Origin: Candidatus Hodarchaeota archaeon
Lineage (GTDB): Archaea > Asgardarchaeota > Heimdallarchaeia > Hodarchaeales > Hodarchaeaceae
Length of the DNA: 60,841 nt
NCBI GenBank assembly: GCA_016839785.1
Contig: JAEOTQ010000155.1
Coordinates: 1 to 60,841 of the forward strand
Reading direction: 5' to 3'
Shown: piece by piece, positions 27,570 to 49,191 of the stretch
Numbering within the stretch: position 1 is the stretch's first letter
Layout: every line of letters begins with the position of its first letter
Notes under the pieces: model-generated
What the model was told of the DNA's origin: nothing
Database searches by the model: none
Seen by the model: the letters and a program-made list of their open reading frames with translations, nothing else
Translations under genes and position numbers: made by a program

Positions 27570-27974
27570 TTAGCCCAGTATCTCTCCAATTTTCTTCGCG
27601 GCTTGTTTCATATCTAGAAAGATTAATCCCAGCTTTACAGATCGGTTTGCTGAAGCAGTTAATACTGCTTTAGACCCAGTTTGAACTGAAATCAAGTAAC
27701 CGTCATTTCCTTCAACAAGAATTCGTGTCATTTCTCCTTTCCCTGTTTCCATGACAGCTCTTTCGCCTAAGCTGAGAATCGCTGCAGTCATGGCGGCTAT
27801 TCGCACATCATCCAAATCGCCAGGAAGTTTAGGAGGCCAAGAGGAAATTGGAAGTCCTTCAAGACTAACAACGCTAGCAAAGTCTATTGCTGGCAATTTA
27901 CTAACAAATGCTTCTAAGACTTCAACTATTTCTTTATGCAATTGTAGATCTGCATCACTATCGGGAATGTACAT
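27570..27974 (-). CDS. Roadblock/LC7 (MglB-like) protein
   Basis: ASVVSLEGLPISS...RIAAMTAAILSLGER...ILVEGNDGY...VKLGLIFLDMK. ATG at 27974 is the likely start. Confidence 0.93.
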   Translation of the reverse strand: MYIPDSDADLQLHKEIVEVLEAFVSKLPAIDFASVVSLEGLPISSWPPKLPGDLDDVRIAAMTAAILSLGERAVMETGKGEMTRILVEGNDGYLISVQTGSKAVLTASANRSVKLGLIFLDMKQAAKKIGEILG

Positions 27975-28266
27975 TCTTACACCCTTGAAAACAAAATTCC
28001 GCACTTATCTTTGCTTAGACATGTGAATTTAAGCTTATCTCCTATAAATATATTTCTGATTCCGAGATTTTTCCGAATACGAAGCTGTACAAGAAGAATA
28101 AACCTACTAACAATATTCTTTCTACTCAAAGTAATATAAGATCCTAATATGTAGATATTACGAGGAGAAATTCCTTCTATTGTATCATAGTGAATTAGAT
28201 TACATCAAAGAGTTTGAAAGCAAAAAGATAATATTAGTTTAACAAAACGCTCCAATGTAAGAGGTT

Positions 28267-28542
28267 TTGAAAATCATGTCCAAGATACATCAACCAAACC
28301 TACGAAATATCAGATCAGAGTCTCCAAGCCTACAAGTAGGAAAGAATGGTTTATCTGATTCCTTCCTAATCGAACTCGATAACCGATTAAAAAAAGAAGG
28401 AACCGTGAAAATAAAATTTCTCAAAAATTCTCCTTACAGTTCACGTCAAGAAGCGATTTTAGCGTTGAAAGGGGTACTGAACAGTAAATTTGAATTGATA
28501 GAGACCCGAGGCTGGACTGCAACCTTACACAAGAAAAGTTAA
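28267..28542 (+). CDS. YhbY/CRM-domain RNA-binding protein
   Basis: PSLQVGKNGL...LKKEGTVKIKFLK...ETRGWTATL. Confidence 0.85.
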   Translation: MKIMSKIHQPNLRNIRSESPSLQVGKNGLSDSFLIELDNRLKKEGTVKIKFLKNSPYSSRQEAILALKGVLNSKFELIETRGWTATLHKKS

Positions 28543-29120
28543 CTATTCTGAGATGTTTTTGTCCCGTATAGTTGGATCATCAAAATTTCACGAGCCAGGG
28601 ATTGAAAAGCTCGTTTTATCCCAATTCCAGTCGTAGCCACAGTCTCATAAATCGGATACATGGATAATTCTAATTTTTCGACGAGTTGGGATCTTGGTAG
28701 TGCGTCTTCAATATCCCGTTTGTTCAATGTTATGACTAAAGGAATGGTGGTGCCTAAATCTTCTCCCAGACGAGTCTTAAGTTCCTCAAAAGATGATATA
28801 TTTTCCTGCATTTGATCTGGTGAAGAATCAACTACAAATAAAATACCATCTACTCCTTGAATTACAATTTTACGTTGGTGTTTATGCCGTTCCTGTCCCG
28901 CAGTGGTATAAACGTCGAAAACAACGCCAGTTGTGGCTTGCATCGGTGCAAAATCAAAGAAAAGGGTACGTCCGTGTGGATCGGCAAGTTGAGTGAATTT
29001 TCCTTTTTCTAATCCATCAACTTTATGATAGAGCCAACCAAGAGTCGTTGTCTTCCCACAGAGAGATGGGCCATAAAATACAATTTTAAATCTATGACGA
29101 CCTTCTGCGTCTTTTCGCAA
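28539..29120 (-). CDS. MglA-like small GTPase
   Basis: KIVFYGPSLCGKTT, GRTLFFDF, YTTAGQ, GVDGILFVVDS and NKRD. Confidence 0.92.
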   Translation of the reverse strand: MRKDAEGRHRFKIVFYGPSLCGKTTTLGWLYHKVDGLEKGKFTQLADPHGRTLFFDFAPMQATTGVVFDVYTTAGQERHKHQRKIVIQGVDGILFVVDSSPDQMQENISSFEELKTRLGEDLGTTIPLVITLNKRDIEDALPRSQLVEKLELSMYPIYETVATTGIGIKRAFQSLAREILMIQLYGTKTSQNS

Positions 29121-29162
29121 TCAATTTGACTCCTTTGTTAACTAGGAGGATAAGAGTTTGTA

Positions 29163-29657
29163 TTAGAATTTTTCAAGCTCTCGTAAAGCAGCTTCAAGTT
29201 CATCCTTCTCAAGCCCAGTACGAACTTCAGGTGATTTAGAAGGAGTTCCAGGTAAGGTTCGAGAGGGATGTCCAGCTAAAAACTCATCAAGAATTGAGCT
29301 AAGTTCTTCATTCGCTTTTCTCATAAGCAAGCGAATCATACCGATATTTACCTCTGCATCGGAAATAATTGTTAAAATTCCACGACCGCAGGCACTTGCA
29401 AATATTTTCCCAGTATCAAATTCTGAAGTAACAACATCCAATCCGCCAATTGTTAGATTAGATCCTTGTTCTGCTGAAGCCATAAAGACTGCTGAGGCAA
29501 TTGCGCCAATACCATCAACATCAACAGATACATAACTAAACTTGGAAACGTGCGCTATAGTTAGACCAGTACGGTCGACTAGAATAATTTTTCGAATTCC
29601 GGGTTCACTTTTAATGATTTTACTGAGTACACTGTCAAACCTTCGTGGATCTATCAA
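29163..29657 (-). CDS. Roadblock/MglB-like protein with C-terminal extension
   Basis: IILVDRTGLTIA...GAIASAVF...VNIGMIRL roadblock fold, Pro-rich linker, terminal helix LEKDELEAALRELEKF; directly upstream of the MglA-like gene. Confidence 0.9.
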   Translation of the reverse strand: MIDPRRFDSVLSKIIKSEPGIRKIILVDRTGLTIAHVSKFSYVSVDVDGIGAIASAVFMASAEQGSNLTIGGLDVVTSEFDTGKIFASACGRGILTIISDAEVNIGMIRLLMRKANEELSSILDEFLAGHPSRTLPGTPSKSPEVRTGLEKDELEAALRELEKF

Positions 29658-33806: not shown

Positions 33807-34147
33807 TAAGGGAATAAATTCGCTTAAACTGAATAAGTTAAGGGGAAATCTTGTTTGAATTATGAAGGGAAGGAGATCCGTATTTCAGGTGAGCGTGATG
33901 TAATAAATATCTATTTGTTGAGCATTCCGTTTTCTGTATTGAACAAAATCCTAGAACTAGTATGAAGATTGTAAAAAGACGAAGATAACAATAGATCTAT
34001 CTGAACACACCTAAATATAAAGCTTTAAAAGGTTTAAAATCGTCACAAATGTGAATAACGGATATTGACACTGTTAAACGATTGAGATCGAGTGTAATCA
34101 TTCCTAATCACTTATTTAAGAAAAAAATAATTTTGGTGACTCTTGCT

Positions 34148-35134
34148 ATGAGAGAAAAATACCAACATGCAAGTAATGCGCTAAATCAACTAAGTAATGC
34201 AGCTGCAATGAAAGCAAAACATATGTCAGATCTAGTAATAAAATCTTACACACAATTTGAAGAAATTAGGTATTTGAGCGAAACTGTACCTGATATCATA
34301 CTTTACTCTGACAATAAAATGGCCAATTTAAAGGAAAGCGGGGAAATTCGTGTTGCACAACTCCTAGCGGCTATTCTTTGTGATCAAATAACAGAACGAT
34401 CCAAAAAATTAGTCGAAGATCTTGAATTCGGTCATATGGAATTGGATCTTCGTACTGAACTGTTAGATATTCGTGAACAAATAACACGATTAGAAGAGGT
34501 AGTTCAGGTTCAAAATAAATTGGCTAATGGGGCTCCAGTGTCAACAGAGGGAATGAAAAATTTGCAGAAAAAATATGATTCTCGCATCCAGCAATTGGAA
34601 CGAGAGTTACTCCGGGAAGAAGGACGCACACTTACAGTAACCGCCTTAGATGCAACAAAAAAGCCAAAGATATTTGGTAAAGGAAAATTTGTTGACAATC
34701 TTGCTGATTTAGTTCTTGAACAAGGGAAATCTCTTCGAGCGAGTTCAGGTGGTTATATTTCAATGGCAAATTTATATACTTCCTTAAAAAATCAAATTCC
34801 AGACATTAAATTCTCATTGAAAGATTTAGAAAAGGCCTGTAAGCAGCTAACTAAACAGTCACTAATCGAAGGTGTTTCTACCCAGTCTGGGGTTAAGATT
34901 GTTGAGTTTACTCCCGTTTCTCTTGGAAAGGATGCCCGGAATATATTTAATCTTGCAATCGAAAAAGGCTTTGTAACATTTGAGGAAGTAATGATACAAA
35001 CAAAGTGGGACCAACAACGAGTTAAAAGGGTCTTAGATAGTCTTGTTGGTCAAAAAATTGCTCGAAAAGTATCATCACTCGATTCAGGTGATCAATATTA
35101 CTTCCCAGGGCTATATGGAGATGAAGATTGGTAG
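34148..35134 (+). CDS. ESCRT-II Vps22/Vps36 (EAP30)-like protein with N-terminal coiled coil
   Basis: Tandem winged helices SSGGYISMANLY...SLKDLEKACKQL and GFVTFEEV...KWDQQRVKRVLDSLV...YYFPGL, matching the EAP30/Vps36 C-terminus. ATG at 34148 preferred. Confidence 0.8.
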   Translation: MREKYQHASNALNQLSNAAAMKAKHMSDLVIKSYTQFEEIRYLSETVPDIILYSDNKMANLKESGEIRVAQLLAAILCDQITERSKKLVEDLEFGHMELDLRTELLDIREQITRLEEVVQVQNKLANGAPVSTEGMKNLQKKYDSRIQQLERELLREEGRTLTVTALDATKKPKIFGKGKFVDNLADLVLEQGKSLRASSGGYISMANLYTSLKNQIPDIKFSLKDLEKACKQLTKQSLIEGVSTQSGVKIVEFTPVSLGKDARNIFNLAIEKGFVTFEEVMIQTKWDQQRVKRVLDSLVGQKIARKVSSLDSGDQYYFPGLYGDEDW

Positions 35135-35143
35135 GTAAAATCG

Positions 35144-36040
35144 ATGGCGGAAACAGATAAATTTGGTGGATTATTCCGTAAAATAGGGGACACAATACAC
35201 ATAGGTGCCAAGAAATTCAAAGGCAAAGCAATACTAAGTTCAAAATTTGAAGAGTCATCAGGAGAATCATTAATCCATAGGGTAAAAGCAGAAGAAAATG
35301 ATAATTTTAGAAAAATTGATGGCTTTATTGTAAAAGAACCAGAAAATGCGGTATTATTACAGTCAGGAGTGTTAATTGGAGTGGCTGGGAGCGGAATATA
35401 CCAACTAGAAAAATCTGCAAAGCATCCAGGTAGCGAAATAATATGGGTTACAAAACGCGAATTTATCATCAAATGGGGAACCCCTGGTATATACACCTCA
35501 GATAACGTTATGGTGGGATGTTGGGGAATTTCTCGAATGCGAATTGTTAATCCACGAAATTTCATTATGAATGTAGTCTCCCATAAACAGTACTATAGTG
35601 GAAATGAGTTAAAAAATTGGGTTAAACAAACGATTATTGCAGCAGTCAAACATGTTATGACTCGGTACACTGTTCCAGAATTGTTAAAAGAAAGGAGAAG
35701 CCTAGAAATACAAACAAGATCTGAATTAGGGCCTGAAAGCTCACGATGGGGTTTGGAGCTAGTAGGTTTAGATATTGGTGGATTCAAAGTACCTGAAGAA
35801 TATGAGACCTTACTAACATATGAAATAGAGAAGCAGATTATTGAAACTCGGCAAGAGCTTGCAGAAGAGCGAAATCAATTAGACGAGGTTTCAGAAAAAA
35901 TTAAGAAATTCGAATTAATGCTCGAACAGGCTGATGAGATGTTTCTTGCTGGTAAAATTTCGGAAAAACGGTATAAAGAACTAACAGACAAGTATTCATC
36001 AAAACTAGCAAAATTAAAAGCCCAAGAAACTCCCTTATAG
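35144..36040 (+). CDS. SPFH/Band-7 domain protein with C-terminal coiled coil/SHOCT-like end
   Basis: FIVKEPENAVLLQSG...IKWGT...RIVNPRNF...RWGLELVGLDI..KVPEE; ends AGKISEKRYKEL. Confidence 0.8.
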   Translation: MAETDKFGGLFRKIGDTIHIGAKKFKGKAILSSKFEESSGESLIHRVKAEENDNFRKIDGFIVKEPENAVLLQSGVLIGVAGSGIYQLEKSAKHPGSEIIWVTKREFIIKWGTPGIYTSDNVMVGCWGISRMRIVNPRNFIMNVVSHKQYYSGNELKNWVKQTIIAAVKHVMTRYTVPELLKERRSLEIQTRSELGPESSRWGLELVGLDIGGFKVPEEYETLLTYEIEKQIIETRQELAEERNQLDEVSEKIKKFELMLEQADEMFLAGKISEKRYKELTDKYSSKLAKLKAQETPL

Positions 36041-36045
36041 TTTAT

Positions 36046-37806
36046 TTATTCGTTATACTCAAGGGAAGATCCACATTCTGGGCAATCAATCATTCCAACT
36101 GATTCCATTCCTTGATAACAATTTACACATACTTCTGCTTTACATGAATTACAGATTAACTTCTTCTGATCTGTTTTAACCCAATTACAAACCGCACATT
36201 CGAAAGAAACAAAATCCCTTTTGATAATCAACTGCATTTTTCTTATGTTGATAGATCCTGATATAATTTTATGAGTGATGAGTTTTTCTAATATTGCTAT
36301 AACCCTGTCCGAGGATTGATTACTGAAATCAATTATCTGCTGAAGAGTGAATATTGTTGAATGATTGTTTCGAATAAAGTCCACCAATTGGCTTTCAATC
36401 GAACTAAGACTTATGGTTCTCTCTCCTGGAGAGTACCATCCCGATTTCAATGGGCCCTGTTCACAGAAATAACACTCCTCAGTTGTTTCAAGATTGTACG
36501 AATAAGCGTAAGTTAACCTGCAGTTGGGACAGTTCCGTGGTAGATCGATAATAAATGCCGAAATATTCCCACAAAACGGACATTCGTGGGTACTATCTAC
36601 ATTTCTACAGTTAGAGCACATCACTCTCCTACAGTTTTGACATTCAAAATAAATGGATGGATTGGAATATGAGGAGGTATCTATTTGGCAAAATATTTCT
36701 AAATCTTTTATTCCTTTTACTAGAAAAGGATTAATTGAATCCCCAGCAATAATGCGTAGTTCTAAACGATCTGCTATGATTTGAATTACTTTTAACAGGT
36801 TTAAAACATTTAAGTGTAATTTTGATGCCAATCCCTCAATATCAATTCCCTGTTTGAACCAGTCAATCAAAGTTCTTCCTTTAAATGTTTTTTCTGATAA
36901 TTCACCTTTAAAGCTTTCATTCAGTAGTAATAATAGGTTGTAGAGATCATCAAACGCAAGATCAAACCTTGCCTGCCAGAAATCCAAAGGAATCTCTTGA
37001 TAAACATAAATATCCCATATGATTTGTGATACGATATCAATAGTAGAATAGATATAATTATTATCCTTAGATTGGATATAGCTTAAACCTTTTCCAATAG
37101 ATTCAAGGATTATCAATACATCATCAATTGATAGATTGGTAAGCCTAGAAATATTAACTAAGGAAACTTCAGAAGAGATTTGGAAGGAAGCATTTATGAA
37201 TCGGGTTAAATATCTAATTGATCCTTCATTCGGGGAAGAATAGGAGAGATGAATATACTTAAAGTTATAAATTCGTTGCTTGATAGGATCAATATAACCT
37301 CGGAACAAATTTTTGTCAGCTAATAAGTCTAATACAGCTTCTAGCTGGTCATCTGTCCAGTAAATCTGATTTAACAAGTATTCAAGATCGTGAGTAGGAG
37401 ACGTACCGAGTAATTTAGCAATGAATGATATTGCACCAGAACGAGTGAAAAATCTTCGTTTTATTAGATCAAAAAATCCATCAATTTTTTGGACATATTC
37501 ATGGATAATAGATTCAAGTAATTTTCCAGGAATATTCAAAAGATCAATTAAATCGCATATATCAACAACTCCCTGTGTATCTAAGAAATGTTGAATTTTT
37601 CTGTAAACATGAGAATTTGGTATGAAATAATTGTGGTTATAATCTAAAACACCTTTTAATTCTTGGTGTTGAATTTTCTCATGTATAAAGGCGATTACAT
37701 TCATTTTATCGGTTTTTGAAGAAAATTCCTCAATCCGTATAGGTGATTGTGCCGTCGAGACTGCTTCAAACCATTTTGTTTTTTTGCGTCTTAACATCTT
37801 GCACAA
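36046..37806 (-). CDS. Winged-helix-repeat (UFL1/PCI-like) protein with two RING-like Cys clusters; candidate E3 ligase
   Basis: Repeated WH units (GVVDICDL..LNIP, FRGYIDP, ISGSINIR); internal CQID...CQNC-x4-CSNC...CPFC and CPNC...CYFC; C-terminal C-x2-C-x11-C-x2-C-x4-C-x2-C-x11-C-x2-C. Confidence 0.7.
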   Translation of the reverse strand: MCKMLRRKKTKWFEAVSTAQSPIRIEEFSSKTDKMNVIAFIHEKIQHQELKGVLDYNHNYFIPNSHVYRKIQHFLDTQGVVDICDLIDLLNIPGKLLESIIHEYVQKIDGFFDLIKRRFFTRSGAISFIAKLLGTSPTHDLEYLLNQIYWTDDQLEAVLDLLADKNLFRGYIDPIKQRIYNFKYIHLSYSSPNEGSIRYLTRFINASFQISSEVSLVNISRLTNLSIDDVLIILESIGKGLSYIQSKDNNYIYSTIDIVSQIIWDIYVYQEIPLDFWQARFDLAFDDLYNLLLLLNESFKGELSEKTFKGRTLIDWFKQGIDIEGLASKLHLNVLNLLKVIQIIADRLELRIIAGDSINPFLVKGIKDLEIFCQIDTSSYSNPSIYFECQNCRRVMCSNCRNVDSTHECPFCGNISAFIIDLPRNCPNCRLTYAYSYNLETTEECYFCEQGPLKSGWYSPGERTISLSSIESQLVDFIRNNHSTIFTLQQIIDFSNQSSDRVIAILEKLITHKIISGSINIRKMQLIIKRDFVSFECAVCNWVKTDQKKLICNSCKAEVCVNCYQGMESVGMIDCPECGSSLEYNE

Positions 37807-37942
37807 CCAGATGATGTCTAATCAATGAAAGGAAAGGCATTTTTATATCATTTACCCACAACCTAATTATCACAAGAGCTATCACAAGTAGGGTCAATTC
37901 AATATTAAGTAAGAAATTTTTCAATATCAGCATGAAAAAGAT

Positions 37943-38290
37943 GTGAGATGTTCCCACGTGAAAGAATCCAACTTTAGATGCCAATTTTGTGGATACGTTC
38001 CTCACTCACATGAACAACCTGGTACAGGTGTTTGGTATTGCCCTAAATGTGGAAAAAGAACAACAATTCGATTAACTGTACCTTCACCTAGGAAATCCAG
38101 TTACAAAAAGCCCCAATCTCGTCAAGCTTCTCGTGATCAAATTTCTAGCCAAATTTACAGGGAACTCACAAAAGAAAAGAGTCAAGAATATGGGCTAAAA
38201 GAACCTTATCTCAATCCAACCATTCAACCAATAAAACCAAAACTCAGAAAAAAGGTACGCATTTTCGCTCCCTCTAAAGATAACGATTAA
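37943..38290 (+). CDS. Small basic zinc-ribbon protein
   Basis: CQFCG...WYCPKCG followed by a basic, probably disordered tail. Confidence 0.6.
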   Translation: MRCSHVKESNFRCQFCGYVPHSHEQPGTGVWYCPKCGKRTTIRLTVPSPRKSSYKKPQSRQASRDQISSQIYRELTKEKSQEYGLKEPYLNPTIQPIKPKLRKKVRIFAPSKDND

Positions 38291-39537
38291 CCCTTTTTTG
38301 TTTTAAACCTGATTATTACTCTCTTTTCTTCATCATCAGTAAGTGAACTCGCAGTTAATCTATCTCCATCTTGAAGAACATTTTTCACTAAAGCTTCATT
38401 CGGAATGATAAAATTTCCTCTAAAACCTATGTAGTTTTTCTTGAATTTACGTTTTAAAACGGTGAAAATCGTCCTACATTTTGAATTTGGATTTATATTA
38501 ATGGTTACTGGGGTTTGCTGAAAAATTGATGTATCGCCGCACACCATACAATCTGGATCTCTAAATAATTCAAAAGAACTTATATTTCCTGTCAAAGCTG
38601 AATAAATTGTTAAATCAGGAACTCTAAAACGATATGTTTGGACTAGAGATTTCATTCGATTTTGATCCTTTTTCTTTAAATCCTTCATTTTATTAAAAAA
38701 CAGGGTTTTTATAATTTCTTGTGATTGAATTCCACTTGTTACTGCATTAACAGTGATTAGGCTAGGTACACGGTATAATACACTCTGAATTATATCTTTA
38801 TTATCAAATATTGGGAATTGGTGTTTCGCCGCTAACTTATTTGCTAGATCTGTTAGTTTTTGGATATCATCGGAGGAATTTTCATCAGGTTCACGATCAT
38901 TAAGTGTATGAAATTCATATAGAGCTTTCCATGCGCAATGGTCTCTCGTTCTTGGAGTTCCAACAAGGGTACATGGTGCAGATAGAACACGTGTCTCCTC
39001 CGGAGGTGGTGGTGAATCACATGCCAAACAGGCGTTATTACTTGGATTAACACTTTGTACTTGACCAAAATATCCATCAGTTGCTGAATCTATTAGCGAT
39101 AAAGGTAATTCTACAGCTGTTTCATTGATATATTGACGTGCCAAAAAATTATCCACACAACCAGCAATAATATCAGAATCCTCAAAAATTTTAAAAGGTA
39201 ATGATTGAATAGGTTCATTATATGCCTCAATTTCTAAAGAAGAATTATAACGACTCTTAATTACCTTCTTGGCGACCTTGGCTTTATTTTTTCCAATATC
39301 CGTTTTCGAAAATAGTAATTGTCGATTTAGATTCGAATATTCAATCGTGTCCATATCAACTAAAATTAACTTTCCGACTCCAAGCAAGGCTAAGTTTTTA
39401 GCTACTTCTCCCCCAGTTCCTCCTATTCCTATTATTATTACGCTGCTTTTCTCGATTAGGCTTTGATCCCATATTGTGAGACGTTCTTGTCGATCAAATT
39501 TCGATGTAGGATGTGAGTTCATTGAGAATTCCGTCAA
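38287..39537 (-). CDS. Ubiquitin-like activating enzyme E1 (UBA3-like, single chain)
   Basis: GIGGTG, DMDTIEYSNLNRQLLF, CVDNFLARQYIN, Zn pairs CLAC/CMVC, catalytic PCTLVGTPRTRDHC, C-terminal ubiquitin-fold-like domain. Confidence 0.92.
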   Translation of the reverse strand: MTEFSMNSHPTSKFDRQERLTIWDQSLIEKSSVIIIGIGGTGGEVAKNLALLGVGKLILVDMDTIEYSNLNRQLLFSKTDIGKNKAKVAKKVIKSRYNSSLEIEAYNEPIQSLPFKIFEDSDIIAGCVDNFLARQYINETAVELPLSLIDSATDGYFGQVQSVNPSNNACLACDSPPPPEETRVLSAPCTLVGTPRTRDHCAWKALYEFHTLNDREPDENSSDDIQKLTDLANKLAAKHQFPIFDNKDIIQSVLYRVPSLITVNAVTSGIQSQEIIKTLFFNKMKDLKKKDQNRMKSLVQTYRFRVPDLTIYSALTGNISSFELFRDPDCMVCGDTSIFQQTPVTININPNSKCRTIFTVLKRKFKKNYIGFRGNFIIPNEALVKNVLQDGDRLTASSLTDDEEKRVIIRFKTKKG

Positions 39538-39557
39538 TGAGAAGAGAATGGAGGAGA

Positions 39558-39887
39558 TTACCCCCCTTTTATCTGATCAGGTACTATCATTAAAAGGGCA
39601 TTTTCTTCAATATTGTACGAAACAAGGTTGTTTGATGGATTCATTCTTCGACCTTTAAACAATAGTGCGATTGGTACAACTTCAGGAATATTAAATGCAT
39701 CACGCGCGGCTGTAATTGCTTGAAAAACCGTACCATTAATGTTAATATACTTTTCACGAATATTTTGATCTGGTGGAAGTTGTGGGTCCTTAAAACGGAC
39801 TTTTATCATACGTTCAATACCATCAGATGTTGATCCTTGAGAACTGATATTAGAGTCCCAGACAACATCTTTTTTTCGATTATTCAT
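39558..39887 (-). CDS. Ubiquitin-like modifier ending in Gly-Gly
   Basis: Beta-grasp pattern IKVRFK...LLFKGRRM...LVSYNIEENALLMIV with free C-terminal KGG; directly upstream of the E1. Confidence 0.9.
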   Translation of the reverse strand: MNNRKKDVVWDSNISSQGSTSDGIERMIKVRFKDPQLPPDQNIREKYININGTVFQAITAARDAFNIPEVVPIALLFKGRRMNPSNNLVSYNIEENALLMIVPDQIKGG

Positions 39888-39909
39888 TTATTTTCACCTT
39901 TGATTGTCT

Positions 39910-40701
39910 CTACACATAGAATAAACGTTCAATTTCGGCCAAAACTGCAATAAGATCAATACGGCCTTTTGCATAATCCTCTAAAGGCCCTCGTATAAGT
40001 GGATACCTAGAAAGAACTTCACTTTCAAGACCGATCGGATAATTCTTTTTTCTCTTAATTGTAAATGGGATTATTTCCCCTGTTTGTGCATAAAAGTTAA
40101 TTTTAATTTCCTTTTTTGTTGGTATAGCATCGTAGCTATCCAGAATCTGTCGTATAAGGGGATCTTTTTCTTTAACCGCGTCTCTTGTCTCAGCTAAAGT
40201 CTGGCTAGTCTCTAACTTTTGGGGTATTTGATCTTCAGTTTTTTGGTAGATCTCTTCTAATACATCTAATACCGAGCTTGTGCCTGGTGACCAATTTTTC
40301 ATTGTATTTAAGTCACTGATCTCACAATTGATGACTTCTCGAAGAACATTTGGTCCATCGATAAATGGTTTCTCTGGTAAATCATCGAGTACGATTAATA
40401 AAGGAAAGGCATACTGTCCAACTTGCATTTTTATACGAATTTTTCCTACCTCATCCCCTACTAATTCTCCAGGAAAATTTTCAAGTATTTTCTGGGATTC
40501 CTGAAATAATAGGTAATAGTGTTCAGATTCCACTTCCTCGTCAGCTGAACTTTCATCGGGAGTTATACCCTGTGATTTCTTAAGATAATTTGTCAATTCA
40601 CAATATTCACAATGAATGGGACGAATAGAAGAGGGTTTTCCTGATAAGGGAGCACCACATCCATTACACTGAGCAACATCTGTCTCGATATCGTTCATCA
40701 T
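39910..40701 (-). CDS. Zinc ribbon fused to an inactive E2-like (UEV/RWD) domain
   Basis: CNGCGAPL...CEYC; FPLLIVLDDLPEKPFI...LNTMKNWSPGTSSVLDVLEEI resembles the UBC/UEV core without HPN or the catalytic Cys. Confidence 0.6.
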   Translation of the reverse strand: MMNDIETDVAQCNGCGAPLSGKPSSIRPIHCEYCELTNYLKKSQGITPDESSADEEVESEHYYLLFQESQKILENFPGELVGDEVGKIRIKMQVGQYAFPLLIVLDDLPEKPFIDGPNVLREVINCEISDLNTMKNWSPGTSSVLDVLEEIYQKTEDQIPQKLETSQTLAETRDAVKEKDPLIRQILDSYDAIPTKKEIKINFYAQTGEIIPFTIKRKKNYPIGLESEVLSRYPLIRGPLEDYAKGRIDLIAVLAEIERLFYV

Positions 40702-41018
40702 TCTACCTCATTTCCAGCTCCGTTTTCTGAGAAAGATTAAACATACGAGATTCCAAAATATTACTAATCCACAGAGAAGATCTATAATCACATATTTAGT
40801 AATGATCTAAGCCTCATGTGTTGTAATATGAACAGAAATTTCGCTATTAACTTCCAGAATATTGAATTACTGCAGGTTCATTCTGAAAACTGACCTTAAA
40901 AAACTAGCTCATAATGGCTTTCCTTCTAGCCAGACAATCCACAGCTTTAAAAAAATAGATAGAGTAAGTTTATAGGTTAATGGATATCACCTGATTATTG
41001 AACTAGGAGCGAACACTT

Positions 41019-41564
41019 ATGTCTGATCTACATTCCAGACGATTAAGGGAAGAATTTAAGCGAATGCTCAAGATTTATCCCCCGAAAAGTGCTACCATAA
41101 AGTGGTTGATAGTGAATAATGATCTTCATCATTATTCTGCAACAATAAAAGGGAGAGAAGGCACTCCGTATGAAAATGGGGAATGGAAAATCACTATTGA
41201 TCTCCCACCAGAATATCCCTTTAAACCTCCAATTGTTAATTTTATCACACCAATTTGGCATCCCAATATTGCTGTTGGGGAAACCCGTTGGAAATGGGGT
41301 TCTAATGTCTGCTTAAGTCTAATAAATTGGAATAATATTGGGGAACTTGGTGGTTGGAAAAAGACTATAACTCTACCTAGTGTTTTTGAGCATATTGAAA
41401 TGATGCTTGATGTTTATCAAAGTTCAGGTGATTCTGATTTTCCAGAATATCTTGTTGATCCTGGGGATCCATTCAATCCAGAGGCTGGTAAGTCGATGCA
41501 GTCAAACTTTAATGATTTCTGGAAGAAAGCTGTGGAGTGGACAAAAAAACATAGTATGAATTAA
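41019..41564 (+). CDS. Ubiquitin-conjugating enzyme E2
   Basis: RRLREEF, GTPYENG, PPEYPFKPP.V.F.TPIWHPNI, active-site NVCLSLI and DPFNPEA. Confidence 0.95.
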   Translation: MSDLHSRRLREEFKRMLKIYPPKSATIKWLIVNNDLHHYSATIKGREGTPYENGEWKITIDLPPEYPFKPPIVNFITPIWHPNIAVGETRWKWGSNVCLSLINWNNIGELGGWKKTITLPSVFEHIEMMLDVYQSSGDSDFPEYLVDPGDPFNPEAGKSMQSNFNDFWKKAVEWTKKHSMN

Positions 41565-41660
41565 CTCCTAAATGTCTCAAATTGGTCTAATGGGGTATTA
41601 ATATTGAAAACAAATCAGGGTGGAATTGGATGTTCTGACTAAGCAAGGAATCGAACTTCG

Positions 41661-42239
41661 ATGACAAAGAAACATTCCCAAGATAATGTTGATGGTGAGG
41701 AGGGAAAAAAGAATTCATTTGATGGCCAAGATCCCAGTCTTACTAGCAATGAAATAATACAATTAAAATTAGAGACAAAATCTGTTACTATTTTACAGCA
41801 AGCAATCCAGGAAATTACGAATTTCTCTATCAAATCAATGCCAAAAGAGGCGATTGGATTACTAAGTGGGAGAGAAATACGTCCAAAAGAATTAATGATA
41901 ACAAAGGGGATTTATGTTACTGAAGGGGAAGAATACTCTGTATCCTTTTCTGAGGACGATTTTCAAGTATTTGATCAATTAGCTGGACCTGAATATTGTG
42001 TGGGATGGTGGCATTCCCATCCTGGATTTGGACTATTTTTATCTCAGACTGATATCACTACTCATATTTTCTCTTTTCAAATTGTACATCGTTTATCAGT
42101 GGCACTGGTAGTTGATCCCATTGCTGTAGGAATAGATGGAATCGCTAAACATAAATTTTTCCAAGTCGTAGGCGACTCTCAGAACAATTCATTCCGATAT
42201 GTAGAACTAGCCAGTTATCTTGATAAATCTTCAGAGTAA
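41661..42239 (+). CDS. JAMM/MPN+ isopeptidase (Rpn11/CSN5-like)
   Basis: EAIGLL...VGWWHSHPGFGLFLSQTD...ALVVDP, a complete JAMM motif. Confidence 0.93.
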   Translation: MTKKHSQDNVDGEEGKKNSFDGQDPSLTSNEIIQLKLETKSVTILQQAIQEITNFSIKSMPKEAIGLLSGREIRPKELMITKGIYVTEGEEYSVSFSEDDFQVFDQLAGPEYCVGWWHSHPGFGLFLSQTDITTHIFSFQIVHRLSVALVVDPIAVGIDGIAKHKFFQVVGDSQNNSFRYVELASYLDKSSE

Positions 42240-42313
42240 GGATAATTCTGTAATTATAAATTCAGAAATCGGTTTGGAACAAACAATATTAAACAATGAA
42301 TTAGAAGGCCACT

Positions 42314-43108
42314 TTGAGATTCAAAATGACAATATACGATCCTTTTACAAAACTCTTTCTCATCATTGGACAATTCTTCTTACAATCTGAGCAATACGGG
42401 ATTCTAGATTATTTAATTATATTTTTAGGACCAGGACTCGTATTATTTTTCACATTTTATCTGTTATGGGCTGGTAGGAGGAAGAATCACAAAATAATTA
42501 ACGTAACAAAGGATGCTCTTCTTGAAATTTTCTCAAATGAATTTGATGATTTTGTAACGGATCAATTAAGTTCCAATGGTGGACTACTATTTCCAAAGTA
42601 TAAAAAATCCTCTAAAATTCCATTTAAAGATTTTCGCGTTGTGTTTGCATTGGAAGAACGTCATTTAATGTTATCTGTGATTATCTCATGGTTTTCAGGT
42701 TCAAATGACTACATTGCTATAGAAGGAAATGCAAAAAAAGGGAAATTACCAACTAAGATACAAATCATCCCCAACAATGAGGAAGGACAGATTAAAAAAC
42801 ATCAAGATGTGCTTTTTCAATTAAAAGATATAACACTCGATGTAGAACGACTTGATAATTTCTTTCTATTGAAAGCTACATCTGAACGCATGGGGAATTA
42901 TTTTCTTAAAGATAAGTCATTATTAAAACAAATTTACTCCATTCGGGAATTTTTAGTCAGACTCTCTATCGATTCGTCAGAAGATCCTTCAATTCGAGTT
43001 TATTGTAGAATAAATAAGAAGCTAGACTTAGTAAAGATACATCGATTATTTCTAACCTTAACCGAACGAGTAAATTTAGTCTCAGAAAAAAAGGTCATGA
43101 AGAAATAA
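42314..43108 (+). CDS. Single-TM protein resembling CCDC47 (PAT complex subunit, DUF1682)
   Basis: TM helix followed by GRRKNHKI...F..EF and ALEERHLMLSVI.....ND.I.I, comparable to remembered CCDC47 segments GKNKNSRLA...LESNF and FLKRQDLLNVL....SDQVQI. Confidence 0.6.
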   Translation: MRFKMTIYDPFTKLFLIIGQFFLQSEQYGILDYLIIFLGPGLVLFFTFYLLWAGRRKNHKIINVTKDALLEIFSNEFDDFVTDQLSSNGGLLFPKYKKSSKIPFKDFRVVFALEERHLMLSVIISWFSGSNDYIAIEGNAKKGKLPTKIQIIPNNEEGQIKKHQDVLFQLKDITLDVERLDNFFLLKATSERMGNYFLKDKSLLKQIYSIREFLVRLSIDSSEDPSIRVYCRINKKLDLVKIHRLFLTLTERVNLVSEKKVMKK

Positions 43109-43126
43109 AATTGGGCTATCAAATTT

Positions 43127-43690
43127 CTATAGAGTCTCAATTTTTTCAGTGACTCTTTGTCGTAGCCATTCTAATCCTTCTTCAACATTGAATCCAGTCT
43201 TAGCTGAAGTAGGTACAATTGCATATGAATGGGTCGTTACTTTGTGAAGATTAAGGGATCGTGCAACTTCACCTGCAGAAGCAGCATTTTCTAGATCTTG
43301 CTTGTTTGCTAATACCAAAATTGGAATGTTTTCCACCTTATCGTTATTTAAGACGTATTTCCATAATTCAGCTTGAGCTTCATCAAAACGAGTTCTATCG
43401 TTTGAATCAATCACATAAACTATTCCCATTGAACCAGCCATATAACTCTCCCAAAGAGATTCACGAAAGGCTTCTTGGCCACCAATATCCCAAGATATGA
43501 ACCGCACATTACCAGAACTGAACTCATCAACATTCATACCTAGTGTACGAAATGTACTATCATCAAATTCCCCAGAGGTTATTCTTTTGACAATCGTAGT
43601 CTTGCCTGCATGGTCAAGTCCTAACCAGGCTATCTTCACTGTTAGTCGTTCTCTAGCAAGCCTCGCGCGTAGTTTGGTAAGGAAACTCAT
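43127..43690 (-). CDS. Arf-family small GTPase
   Basis: GLDHAGKTT, TLGMN, WDIGGQ, ANKQDL and TSAKTG; N-terminal amphipathic helix. Confidence 0.93.
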   Translation of the reverse strand: MSFLTKLRARLARERLTVKIAWLGLDHAGKTTIVKRITSGEFDDSTFRTLGMNVDEFSSGNVRFISWDIGGQEAFRESLWESYMAGSMGIVYVIDSNDRTRFDEAQAELWKYVLNNDKVENIPILVLANKQDLENAASAGEVARSLNLHKVTTHSYAIVPTSAKTGFNVEEGLEWLRQRVTEKIETL

Positions 43691-43702
43691 TGAAGATACC
43701 TC

Positions 43703-44251
43703 TTATTTTCTTTGTGTCAATTTACTCTGAAATCTCTCGCTCATCCATTGCCAGGGCTCCTCAACACCTTCTCCAGTAAGAGCTGAACATGGATAAACCC
43801 CAAATGTTCTTGGACGTTCTGCCATTTCAGTTTCCAGCTCAAGGGTTTTAACTATATTATCTAAAGACATAGCAACATCTAAATCTTGCTTGTTTGCCAA
43901 AAATAAAAATGCCGAATCCTCTGGCGCCCATTGAATAACGTTCTTAAGCCATTTAGCTGCAGTTTCTACTTTGTCTCTATCAGCTGAGTCGAAAACAAAA
44001 ACCACTCCCGATGCTTCTGAAACAAAAGGTTCCCAAAGACTAGTAGGATAGGTAGGTTGTCCACCTAAATCTACAGCCATAACCTCAAAATCACCAATCT
44101 TTAGCGTTTCAATATTCATACCCATTGTAGGGACAGTTTCTAAATCTTCATGTCCCTTTAGTCTTTTTACTAATGTTGTTTTTCCAGCATTAGCCAGACC
44201 GACAAAGGCTATTTGATTTTCAATTTCTCGACCAAATAATTTTGTTGGCAT
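43703..44251 (-). CDS. Arf-family small GTPase
   Basis: GLANAGKTT, PTMGMN, DLGGQ, ANKQDL and CSALTGEG. Confidence 0.93.
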   Translation of the reverse strand: MPTKLFGREIENQIAFVGLANAGKTTLVKRLKGHEDLETVPTMGMNIETLKIGDFEVMAVDLGGQPTYPTSLWEPFVSEASGVVFVFDSADRDKVETAAKWLKNVIQWAPEDSAFLFLANKQDLDVAMSLDNIVKTLELETEMAERPRTFGVYPCSALTGEGVEEPWQWMSERFQSKLTQRK

Positions 44252-48489: not shown

Positions 48490-49191
48490 TTAAATTTGTT
48501 TATGCCCAAATTCTAGGATATCTATTATATTGGATACTCCCTTCGCTAGAAAATATCGATTATTATCCCAATCCGCAATAACTAGTCTTCGCCATGAAGC
48601 AAATTGAAGTTGAGAAAGAATATCAGATTCAGATTGTCCCATTGATTTAACAATGTCATCCAAGTTTCCAGTTGATTTTTTAACGGCTTGTAAAATCGGA
48701 TAATAATGTTTCACTGCGTTTAGAACGATTAAACCAAGAGCTCGTTCCAAGTTTTTACCTGTTTTTGCCGATGTACCTATCACAGATATTGAAGAGGCTC
48801 TATTGCCCAGAATGGTATTTGCAACTTCCTCTGGACTTTTAGCTCCCAAAATATCCTGCTTGTTTGCACAAAGAACTATTGGTGTTCCTGGTAAAATCTC
48901 ATCAATTTCAATGAGAAGCTTTTTCGCTTCATCAAACGAAGCCACATTGACTGAATCAACGACGAACAATATCCCATCAGCCCCTTTACTTAAAATTTTT
49001 CTTATGATTTCGAATCGTTGCAATCCAGGAGTCCCGAAAAGAAATATTTCAACTCCATAAATTGTGGTTTTGCAGTGGTCCAAGGCAATTGTAGTTCCAC
49101 CATAATCAATAGAAATTGCTTTTCCTGAGCAAATCTTTTGAACTGTCGAAGATTTTCCACTATTGTAGGGGCCAAGGATTACAATTTTCAT
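48490..49191 (-). CDS. MglA-related small GTPase with C-terminal wHTH-like domain
   Basis: GPYNSGKSS, GTTIALD, FGTPGLQRF, ANKQD and SAKTG; C-terminal LDDIVKSMGQSESDILSQL...LVIADW..RYFL. Confidence 0.85.
   Translation of the reverse strand: MKIVILGPYNSGKSSTVQKICSGKAISIDYGGTTIALDHCKTTIYGVEIFLFGTPGLQRFEIIRKILSKGADGILFVVDSVNVASFDEAKKLLIEIDEILPGTPIVLCANKQDILGAKSPEEVANTILGNRASSISVIGTSAKTGKNLERALGLIVLNAVKHYYPILQAVKKSTGNLDDIVKSMGQSESDILSQLQFASWRRLVIADWDNNRYFLAKGVSNIIDILEFGHKQI

Follow-up and report, generated by a model that had tools for sequence, protein, structure and literature searches.

A ubiquitin-type conjugation cluster with a UFL1-like putative ligase and an EAP30-SPFH module in a Hodarchaeales genome

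What does a complete ubiquitin-type conjugation cascade do in an archaeal gene cluster that also encodes a protein related to ESCRT-II (endosomal sorting complex required for transport II), an SPFH protein, a UFL1-like putative ligase, a CCDC47-like membrane protein and two Arf-family GTPases? Hodarchaeales have been put forward, among other archaea, as the nearest relatives of eukaryotes, the current view assigns UFMylation and the multipass translocon to the eukaryotic endoplasmic reticulum (ER), and such a locus gives testable hints on the origin of eukaryotic membrane quality control; strains of Hodarchaeales have reportedly been cultured, according to a preprint. The cluster comprises twelve open reading frames (ORFs) with short spacers, at positions 34082-44251 of contig JAEOTQ010000155.1 of Candidatus Hodarchaeota archaeon (assembly GCA_016839785.1); we will refer to the whole 60,841-nt stretch as “the window”. 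An initial annotation had proposed a ubiquitin-like system for ribosome-translocon surveillance, and its inventory stands for eleven of the twelve parts named, a ubiquitin E2 variant (UEV) being the one not confirmed. We regard it as reasonably probable that the locus encodes a dedicated ubiquitin-type conjugation system of Hodarchaeales, whose ligase and scaffold side is provided by an EAP30-SPFH module.

The chemistry of the cascade is, by sequence comparison, canonical and ubiquitin-type, and the putative ligase is the sole enzyme that looks like UFM1 machinery. Pfam's own cut-offs are passed by the E1, E2 and JAB genes as well as by EAP30, SPFH and both Arf genes, and these identifications of the initial annotation are upheld, together with that of the modifier. 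The activating enzyme (E1; 38287-39537, minus strand, 416 aa) scores 174.6 bits against ThiF, with a weak E1_4HB match; the best of its matches among Protein Data Bank (PDB) structures are UBA1, SAE2/UBA2 and UBA3 (3e-34 to 1e-24), UBA5 reaching no more than 4e-17, and a candidate catalytic Cys is readable in its sequence. The conjugating enzyme (E2; 41019-41564, plus strand) has a UBC fold (UQ_con, 86.2 bits), and its best PDB matches are UBE2D, E2T and E2K, at about 1e-16; residues H81, P82 and N83 (HPN) and C98 are invariant across 11 aligned sequences, with an insertion separating HPN from Cys98. By these PDB comparisons, neither enzyme is of the UBA5/UFC1 type. The JAMM/MPN+ isopeptidase (41661-42239, plus strand; JAB 37.1 bits, Prok-JAB 29.3 bits) retains the HxHx7SxxD motif in its translation.

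The ubiquitin-like modifier (UBL; 39558-39887, minus strand, 109 aa) carries an N-terminal extension of about 25 aa and a C-terminal GG, and scores below the Pfam cut-offs of Rad60-SLD (23.1 versus 23.8 bits) and ubiquitin (18.6 versus 25.4 bits). A word search returned 35 related proteins, 18 of which were aligned: the C-terminal IVPDQIKGG is kept throughout, save for a Q to K change in 2/18, GG is invariant, and six of the 18 bear 1-6 extra residues past it, as would be expected if the modifier is in some cases synthesised in precursor form. The UBL profile matched ubiquitin in the PDB (single-domain E 6e-3 to 0.1), and UFM1 was not among its best 60 matches. A UFM1-like identity was also considered on account of a lone full-length match to PDB 1j0g, and was rejected, this match being at noise level (E 0.67) and lost in the profile search. 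Neither the UBL nor any other protein of the genome, which is 84.5% complete, matched Ufm1 (PF03671) at E<=0.1, and no match to the DDRGK family (PF09756) was found there. The earlier suggestion of a chemistry intermediate between ubiquitin/NEDD8 and UFM1 is thus not supported for this locus, because UBL, E1 and E2 are ubiquitin-type and the Ufm1 and DDRGK families go unmatched.

The UBL and E1 genes follow, at gaps of 22 and 20 bp, the first gene of an operon-like run, which encodes a 263-aa protein, p263 (39910-40701, minus strand), read from its sequence as an N-terminal zinc ribbon followed by domains without an assigned family. This is the product that had been called a UEV, and the assignment was not confirmed: p263 matches no Pfam family at E<=0.1, the Atlas gave no usable match, its profile found nothing E2-like in the PDB (best: a zinc ribbon and a SUMO2 strand, E 0.4), and hhalign gave a probability of 0.2 against the neighbouring E2 family. 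Residues ~192-219 of p263 weakly match the first SUMO2 strands (E 0.42), and might belong to a beta-grasp domain.

The putative ligase (E3), which we call g3 (36046-37806, minus strand, 586 aa), was described from 27 aligned orthologues, which share 41-76% identity with it and have a constant length (~583 aa), and from a structural model built on the alignment, with a predicted local distance difference test (pLDDT) score of 87. In this model an N-terminal helix precedes an array of about six UFL1-like winged helices, which extends over residues ~30-366. Residues 367-460 form a zinc region rich in Cys, in which Cys/His pairs are invariant, residues 464-531 a PCI-type winged helix and residues 532-586 a C4C4 RING-like finger, with eight invariant Cys (residues 537-578). 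The top four PDB matches of the family profile are UFL1 (1.6e-6 to 7e-6, over residues 21-168), followed by many RING fingers at E 0.01-0.2; the top five Foldseek matches are also UFL1 (2e-11 to 8e-9), with SelB sixth (9e-4). In the VIA fold comparison, UFL1 is the sole solved chain covering residues 1-320 (Z 9.5-10.1, 231-292 residues, root-mean-square deviation (rmsd) 8.7-12.9 A), and the winged helix 464-531 matches PCI subunits up to Z 11.5 and the DDRGK1 winged helix at Z 8.8. One relative has a precomputed PF09743 match. The UFL1-like character given to this protein by the initial annotation is in this way borne out by profile, Foldseek and model: we read g3 as a distant relation of UFL1 to which zinc fingers have been fused, outside the Pfam UFL1 family proper, and its tandem winged-helix array appears homologous to that of UFL1.

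When g3 residues 360-586 were modelled together with the E2, the median score was 0.45 (runs of 0.42, 0.45 and 0.60) versus 0.23 for the best control, with contact agreement of at least 55% and partner pLDDT of at least 81, a result graded as “weak support”. The mark used is reached by 116/157 solved complexes and by 2/215 mismatched pairs; 18 of the 157 and both mismatches lie at scores of 0.60 or less. RING and E2 form a textbook pair, and the pass may therefore reflect likeness to solved structures. Among 301 Asgard genomes, full-length g3 is found in 20/20 genomes of the window's genus (family f1) and in one of the two genomes of the sister family (f2), and nowhere else. In 12 of the 68 genomes of another family (f14), proteins of ~790 aa match the N-terminal array of g3 alone, at E 5e-10 to 1e-5.

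The EAP30 (Vps22/36-like) paralogue (34082-35134, plus strand; PF04157, E 1.4e-10, 41.7 bits versus a cut-off of 26.8) has an N-terminal coiled-coil extension of ~150 aa, its true start being possibly the ATG at 34148, and is followed after 9 bp by the SPFH gene (35144-36040, plus strand; Band_7 60.4 bits, Band_7_1 49.5 bits), whose product ends in a coiled coil and contains no hydrophobic 19-mer, hence no membrane segment. Across 83 genomes of the class Heimdallarchaeia, this SPFH type occurs in 21/21 of f1, 1/2 of f2 and 10/60 of the others. A UFC1-like E2 was found in exactly the same 10 genomes and in none of the 23 genomes of f1 and f2; in 9/10 it shares a contig with the SPFH gene, at a distance of up to ~5.2 kb. 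The other 50/60 have neither. At seven SPFH loci from these other families, an ORF of 344-359 aa stands directly upstream of SPFH in six, and in the seventh (L148) it adjoins SPFH but is oppositely oriented; in 6/7 its product can be recognised as EAP30-like. The EAP30-SPFH pair thus tracks UBL cascades across the class. The E3 was found solely where a ubiquitin-type cascade accompanies EAP30-SPFH (f1 20/20, f2 1/2). The association of one EAP30-SPFH pair with two types of UBL cascade argues that EAP30, SPFH and E3 of the window work with the adjoining cascade. As part of the best explanation, we take the pair to be, with fair probability, an ancient ligase/scaffold-side module of Heimdallarchaeia.

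The second type of cascade is seen in three operon-like runs from other Heimdallarchaeial families, L150:7767-12464 (genome G003), L154:3554-8287 (G074) and L148:5727-10184 (G181). They comprise a ThiF E1 of 256-292 aa, a JAB protease of 307-351 aa, an E2-like protein, the EAP30-like protein and SPFH, besides a UBL of 86-92 aa that ends in RGVVG (once with an extra L). One of the sister-family E2s passes the Pfam UFC1 cut-off (27.3 versus 25 bits), and a profile of five UFC1-like E2 sequences has UFC1 as 26 of its 27 PDB matches at E<=10 (E 0.011-0.062); the sole Pfam match of the RGVVG-ending UBLs is Ufm1, at E 0.044 and 0.059, in two of the three tested. A search of the window's own genome with these UFC1-like and Ufm1-like proteins gave no match, an empty result that shows little. 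With such cascades beside EAP30-SPFH in sister families, the UFM1 connection is revived by another route, and these operons on the same scaffold are the most interesting by-product of the analysis.

Gene order at the locus was followed by scanning one genome per species, which yielded 22 related loci, all in one GTDB genus. In 13/22 the set of twelve is complete and its order unchanged; in L025 the last gene is cut by the end of the locus, and the other eight loci are cut by contig ends, none of these eight having a contrary order. The cluster includes a gene overlooked by the initial annotation, for a 115-aa zinc-ribbon protein with a basic tail (37943-38290, plus strand; zinc-ribbon Pfam matches, all sub-threshold), which is oriented divergently from the E3 gene and is present in all related loci reaching that position. 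Beyond the genus, in genome G265 of the sister family, EAP30, SPFH, an E3 25% identical to g3 and the zinc-ribbon orthologue abut on one strand, the zinc-ribbon gene coming after the E3 gene. It is followed in G265 by a small GTPase and a Roadblock protein, whose window orthologues (65% and 57% identical) lie apart from the cluster, at 28539-29657; in the window these belong to a trio of Roadblock, small GTPase and Roadblock/LAMTOR-like genes at 27570-29657.

A different history is suggested by the genes at the other end of the cluster. The CCDC47-like gene (42314-43108, plus strand) encodes 264 aa with one hydrophobic segment (residues 28-54) followed by RRKNHK, an alpha/beta domain and a C-terminal helix; the basic stretch after the transmembrane segment suggests a cytosolic C-terminal domain. 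The window protein itself matches no Pfam family at E<=1. CCDC47 (PF07946) is matched by 16/29 close relatives at E<=1 (best 8.8e-6) and, in a broader set, by 8/24 (best 3.6e-6); it is the sole recurrent Pfam match of the family, one relative having it precomputed, and an Atlas search gave a CCDC47 lead at rank 22 (score 0.83). The structural model is of moderate confidence (pLDDT 71.7). Its top three Foldseek matches are the translocon entries 7tm3_4 (6.7e-6, TMq 0.59), 9i78_4 and 6w6l_7 (range to 7e-5), the mycobacterial TtfA coming next, and VIA, which here searched 48,161 representative chains independently of Foldseek, gave 7tut_4 (Z 16.2, rmsd 3.8 A over 213 residues, chain residues 135-401), 9i78_4 (Z 14.8) and TtfA (Z 11.1), with the remaining rows at Z <=6. 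These entries show titles alone, and three points lead us to take the matched chains to be CCDC47: the Pfam signal, the numbering of the chain (135-401), and how CCDC47 is described in the part of PMC7505659 considered here. On that footing the model supports a CCDC47 fold, and the single-pass CCDC47-like protein of the initial annotation holds. Sequence profiles did not reach the solved CCDC47 chains in three PDB searches, and in a profile search of 1.84 billion representatives all 26 proteins obtained were of 58-281 aa, a long eukaryotic form not being among them.

This family is widespread: it occurs in 104/301 Asgard genomes and in nearly every family of the class, and in 0/68 genomes of f14. 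Most genomes of the window's genus hold two copies, the paralogue in the window's own genome (labelled G000) being at C45:21270-21995 (L116:7208-8014; E 9.6e-61 to the family profile). Elsewhere, the CCDC47-like gene adjoins a Ras/Arf-like GTPase in 4/4 loci of family f3 (L099-L102) and a KaiC-like ATPase in five loci of four other families (L103-L105, L107, L110), and these neighbours may be functional pairs; in G286, from the sister family, a zf-AN1 protein is encoded two genes upstream (L098:2235-2798). Pfam searches of 51 neighbouring ORFs at these loci found no ubiquitin-system family. The Arf-family genes of the cluster (43127-43690, Arf 163.7 bits, SRPRB 40.3 bits; 43703-44251, Arf 130.1 bits, SRPRB 52.4 bits; both on the minus strand) form with the CCDC47-like gene a separate, older module, which adjoins the cascade in the window's genus alone; the tie is specific to this genus because UBL-system neighbours are lacking elsewhere, and the adjacency is young. 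The expectation that the flanking membrane genes would be syntenic in other genomes has consequently a split outcome: it fails for the CCDC47-like gene, with 19 loci devoid of ubiquitin genes, and it holds for EAP30-SPFH, with UBL cascades class-wide. Within the window's genus, the CCDC47-like gene comes after E2 and JAMM on one strand, with 96 and 74 bp between successive genes, and may share a transcript with them.

Taken as a mechanism, the most likely arrangement is a cascade that uses the UFL1-like/RING protein as ligase and operates on a scaffold of EAP30 and SPFH; the E3 role of g3, the scaffold role and a membrane location are what we infer from the parts described above. The E1 would adenylate the UBL at its free GG end, form a thioester with it and hand it on to the HPN/Cys E2. 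The C-terminal RING-like finger of g3 would hold the charged E2, and its UFL1-like array, acting jointly with the EAP30 paralogue and a soluble SPFH partner, would position that E2 on a membrane-proximal target. The JAMM enzyme would strip the UBL again, or trim precursors with residues after GG. A role or target at the ribosome-translocon junction is possible, by analogy with the eukaryotic system.

Several findings weigh against so integrated a reading, and some of them speak for a plain juxtaposition, in which the ubiquitin cascade, the EAP30-SPFH-E3 group and the CCDC47-like/Arf genes are united by inherited order in one genus without joint function. The full twelve-gene order is confined to one GTDB genus, and the flanking housekeeping genes (eIF2alpha, GNAT, ThrRS) are as well conserved as the cluster across the 22 loci, so that order alone is weak evidence. 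In G265 the p263-UBL-E1 trio stays together, but on another contig than the E3 module, and tblastn searches of 19 CCDC47-like loci from other genomes and of the own-genome paralogue found no E1, E2, JAMM, UBL, EAP30, SPFH or E3. The assignment of g3 has weak points of its own: it falls under the Pfam UFL1 cut-off (PF09743, 21.2 versus 23.2 bits), its UFL1 Z values are not above those of single winged-helix PCI matches, and its RING identity depends on the matches at E 0.01-0.2 and on the weak complex score. Furthermore, the own genome has at least three E1/E2 sets, the window's included, and with two further sets at hand g3 could serve another cascade. Against juxtaposition as an account of the whole stand the co-occurrence of EAP30-SPFH with two types of UBL cascade, the two sets of 10 genomes being identical and 50/60 genomes having neither component, and the restriction of the E3 to genomes where a ubiquitin-type cascade accompanies the pair; we consider it decidedly unlikely in that form, and give it even chances for the CCDC47-like/Arf part.

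Two further readings accept that the parts cooperate and differ in what they are for. One is ubiquitin-directed membrane sorting as a satellite of the ESCRT pathway, in which the cascade would mark membrane proteins, the EAP30 paralogue read or organise them, SPFH form a microdomain, Arf proteins promote budding and ESCRT-III/Vps4 be supplied from their own locus. EAP30 exceeds its Pfam cut-off and is a paralogue, 30% identical (E 9e-23), of the 239-aa Vps22-like EAP30 of the genome's canonical ESCRT cluster, and two Arf genes lie beside the cluster; in the parts considered here, Hatano 2022 (PMC9192718) describes other Asgard lineages in which ubiquitin genes lie together with those of ESCRT, and Makarova 2024 (PMC10936438) describes ESCRT-SPFH contexts and the YdjI-PspA link. 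That ESCRT cluster is on another contig, G000:C137:1-6600 (L003), without ubiquitin genes, and holds a 206-aa protein, a 448-aa zinc-finger/coiled-coil protein, EAP30, two Snf7, Vps4 and a 262-aa protein. The absence of ESCRT-III and Vps4 from the locus, remarked upon in the initial annotation, is therefore real, and where the genus is represented by closed genomes, two in number, the distance to the window-type cluster is 0.36 and 2.6 Mb. No Vps25, Vps28 or UEV gene was recognised at the window locus, the Arf genes keep to the side of the CCDC47-like gene and ThrRS and do not accompany EAP30-SPFH, and another GTPase follows the E3 in G265. The considered part of Hatano 2022 gives one Vps22/36-like gene per Asgard genome, which places a second paralogue outside the system described there. 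On balance membrane sorting seems a doubtful account.

The other reading, closest to that of the initial annotation, is an ancestral or analogous form of UFMylation, working where ribosome and translocon meet, and we judge it unlikely. The UFL1-like array would dock close to the tunnel exit of large subunits bound at the membrane, from which side the CCDC47-like protein would mark the site, and the UBL would be placed on a ribosomal protein such as uL24, releasing or recycling stalled ribosomes. UFL1 is the closest solved relative of g3, with matching chains from 60S-bound complexes, the CCDC47-like protein shares fold and topology with its namesake and its gene is co-directional with E2 and JAMM in the window's genus, and the sister families combine EAP30-SPFH with a UFC1-like E2 and a VG-ending UBL with weak Ufm1 matches. 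The UBL, E1 and E2 of the window are ubiquitin-type, however, no DDRGK or Ufm1 match is found in the own genome at its stated completeness, g3 has zinc fingers in place of the C-terminal part of UFL1, and the widespread CCDC47-like gene is elsewhere beside Ras-like GTPases or KaiC-like ATPases, and never beside UBL genes. A broader version would derive the Hodarchaeales locus and the sister-family UFM1-like operons from one ancestral UBL pathway, scaffolded by EAP30-SPFH at the membrane-ribosome interface, with eukaryotic UFMylation assembled from its pieces: the UFL1-like array and CCDC47-like partner as in the window, and the Ufm1-like VG-ending UBL, UFC1-like E2 and short E1 as in the sister families. 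We give this common ancestry a low probability; if true, UFC1 and UFM1 would not be eukaryotic inventions, and ER translocon quality control would predate the ER.

With the ubiquitin-type system on an EAP30-SPFH scaffold as the preferred reading, the locus adds to what was known the presence of a CCDC47-fold family throughout a large share of Asgard genomes, a recurrent ESCRT-II-like/SPFH scaffold combined with either a ubiquitin-type or a UFM1/UFC1-like cascade, and a putative hybrid E3, in which a UFL1-like array is fused to a RING-like finger beside a canonical E2. Such a hybrid would explain how a scaffold-type E3 could arise from a RING ligase.

Some observations concern the surroundings of the cluster. 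A mobile element or composition anomaly was considered and rejected: base composition is flat across the window (GC 0.33-0.40), and neither a tRNA nor an Rfam family was found in it. RNA-library contigs from two studies (identity >=99%) lie on SPFH (35031-35824), the E1 start, the UBL and p263; as evidence of expression they are weak, since DNA may be present in libraries of this sort and the contigs show no transcript ends, and gaps in their cover are not evidence of silence. A further small GTPase (48490-49191; Ras/Arf/MMR_HSR1 matches) is encoded 4 kb past the cluster, from which it is separated by ThrRS, a phosphoribosyltransferase, CGI-121 and a THUMP protein. The other cascades of the genome are a complete set on contig C163 (L155:5925-9078), with a 165-aa UBL that has AG at its end, a 412-aa E1 (39% identical to the window E1), an E2 and a JAB protease, followed by three genes without assigned function and a zinc-ribbon gene, and a third, divergent set of JAB-like, E1-like and E2-like genes on contig C121 (L156:4790-7884); a lone E2 is found on contig C114.

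UFL1-like E3s in Asgard ubiquitin clusters are already known, under the marker IPR018611, which we take to be “E3 UFM1-protein ligase 1”. Heimdallarchaeote B3_Heim (locus L004) belongs to the window's genus. The catalogue of Asgard ubiquitin-ESCRT genes by Hatano 2022 (PMC9192718) uses that E3 marker and, according to a figure legend, includes B3_Heim among its synteny-figure genomes. As far as the considered parts of this and a related source go (PMC9192718; 10.1101/2020.10.19.343400), such clusters share with the window a ubiquitin-like modifier, a ThiF E1, a UBC E2, a JAMM/MPN protease, an E3 with a UFL1 signature and an EAP30-family gene nearby. Unlike them, the window locus is devoid of ESCRT-III, Vps4, Vps25 and Vps28, its EAP30 is a second, longer paralogue, its further partners are SPFH, the zinc-ribbon protein, the CCDC47-like protein and Arf GTPases, and its E3 carries RING-like fingers. 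With regard to UFM1 itself, Picchianti 2023, in the part considered, follows UFL1 and DDRGK1 back to Asgards and regards UFM1, UFC1, C53 and UFSP2 as confined to eukaryotes, and the considered text of Koestlbacher 2026 reports Ufm1 homologues in nine Asgard clades and mentions no Ufc1, Uba5, synteny or neighbourhood. A literature search, with figures and supplements outside its range, found Picchianti 2023 as the one paper mentioning both UFC1 and Asgards, no report joining CCDC47 and Asgard, and no publication on the CCDC47-like family, on the UFC1-like E2 or on a link of EAP30-SPFH to UBL cascades.

The tandem winged-helix array and the PCI/DDRGK1-like winged helix of g3 recall the eukaryotic UFL1-DDRGK1(UFBP1)-CDK5RAP3 complex on 60S (PDB 8qfc, 8ohd, 8b9x, 8c0d). 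Eukaryotic UFL1 has no RING, and its partners are UBA5, UFC1 and UFM1, whereas the window enzymes are ubiquitin-type and no DDRGK match was found. The N-terminal array is also common to g3 and the Asgard DDRGK+UFL1+PCI+Vps28-like fusions of ~790 aa, an architecture already described in the considered part of a preprint (Liu et al., 10.1101/2020.10.19.343400). These fusions differ from g3 in passing the Pfam cut-offs (UFL1 62-71 bits; DDRGK 44.6-57.1 bits), in having no zinc fingers and in their housekeeping neighbours; the long form was not found in the own genome. Three examples from f14 are L058:9180-11561, L060:8934-11303 and L059:1087-3450, with a weak C-terminal Vps28 domain.

CCDC47 is, in the part of McGilvray 2020 (PMC7505659) considered here, a subunit of the translocon whose large globular domain lies in the cytosol, at the exit tunnel, together with a C-terminal coiled coil. 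Like CCDC47 (a subunit of the PAT complex and multipass translocon; PF07946; PDB 7tm3, 7tut, 6w6l, 9i78), the window protein would have a single transmembrane segment, a cytosolic alpha/beta domain and a C-terminal helix. It differs in its size (~260 aa; the solved chains have 290-371 residues modelled), in having no long luminal part and a short C-terminal helix, and in a sequence similarity below threshold, and the TtfA fold is similar too (Z 11.1). Among SPFH proteins, the erlins work with RING E3s. Like YdjI-PspA and the ESCRT-SPFH contexts of other archaea (Makarova 2024, PMC10936438, in the part considered), the window has a Band_7_1-type SPFH protein beside an ESCRT-family protein and a RING-like ligase; unlike those systems, its SPFH protein has no membrane anchor, an EAP30 (ESCRT-II-type) partner and a link to a UBL cascade. 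A compact archaeal operon of Caldiarchaeum subterraneum encodes a GG-ending ubiquitin-like modifier, an E1, an E2, a small RING E3 and a JAMM protease (Rpn11); where it has a small RING alone, the window has a winged-helix array, EAP30, SPFH and the CCDC47-like protein.

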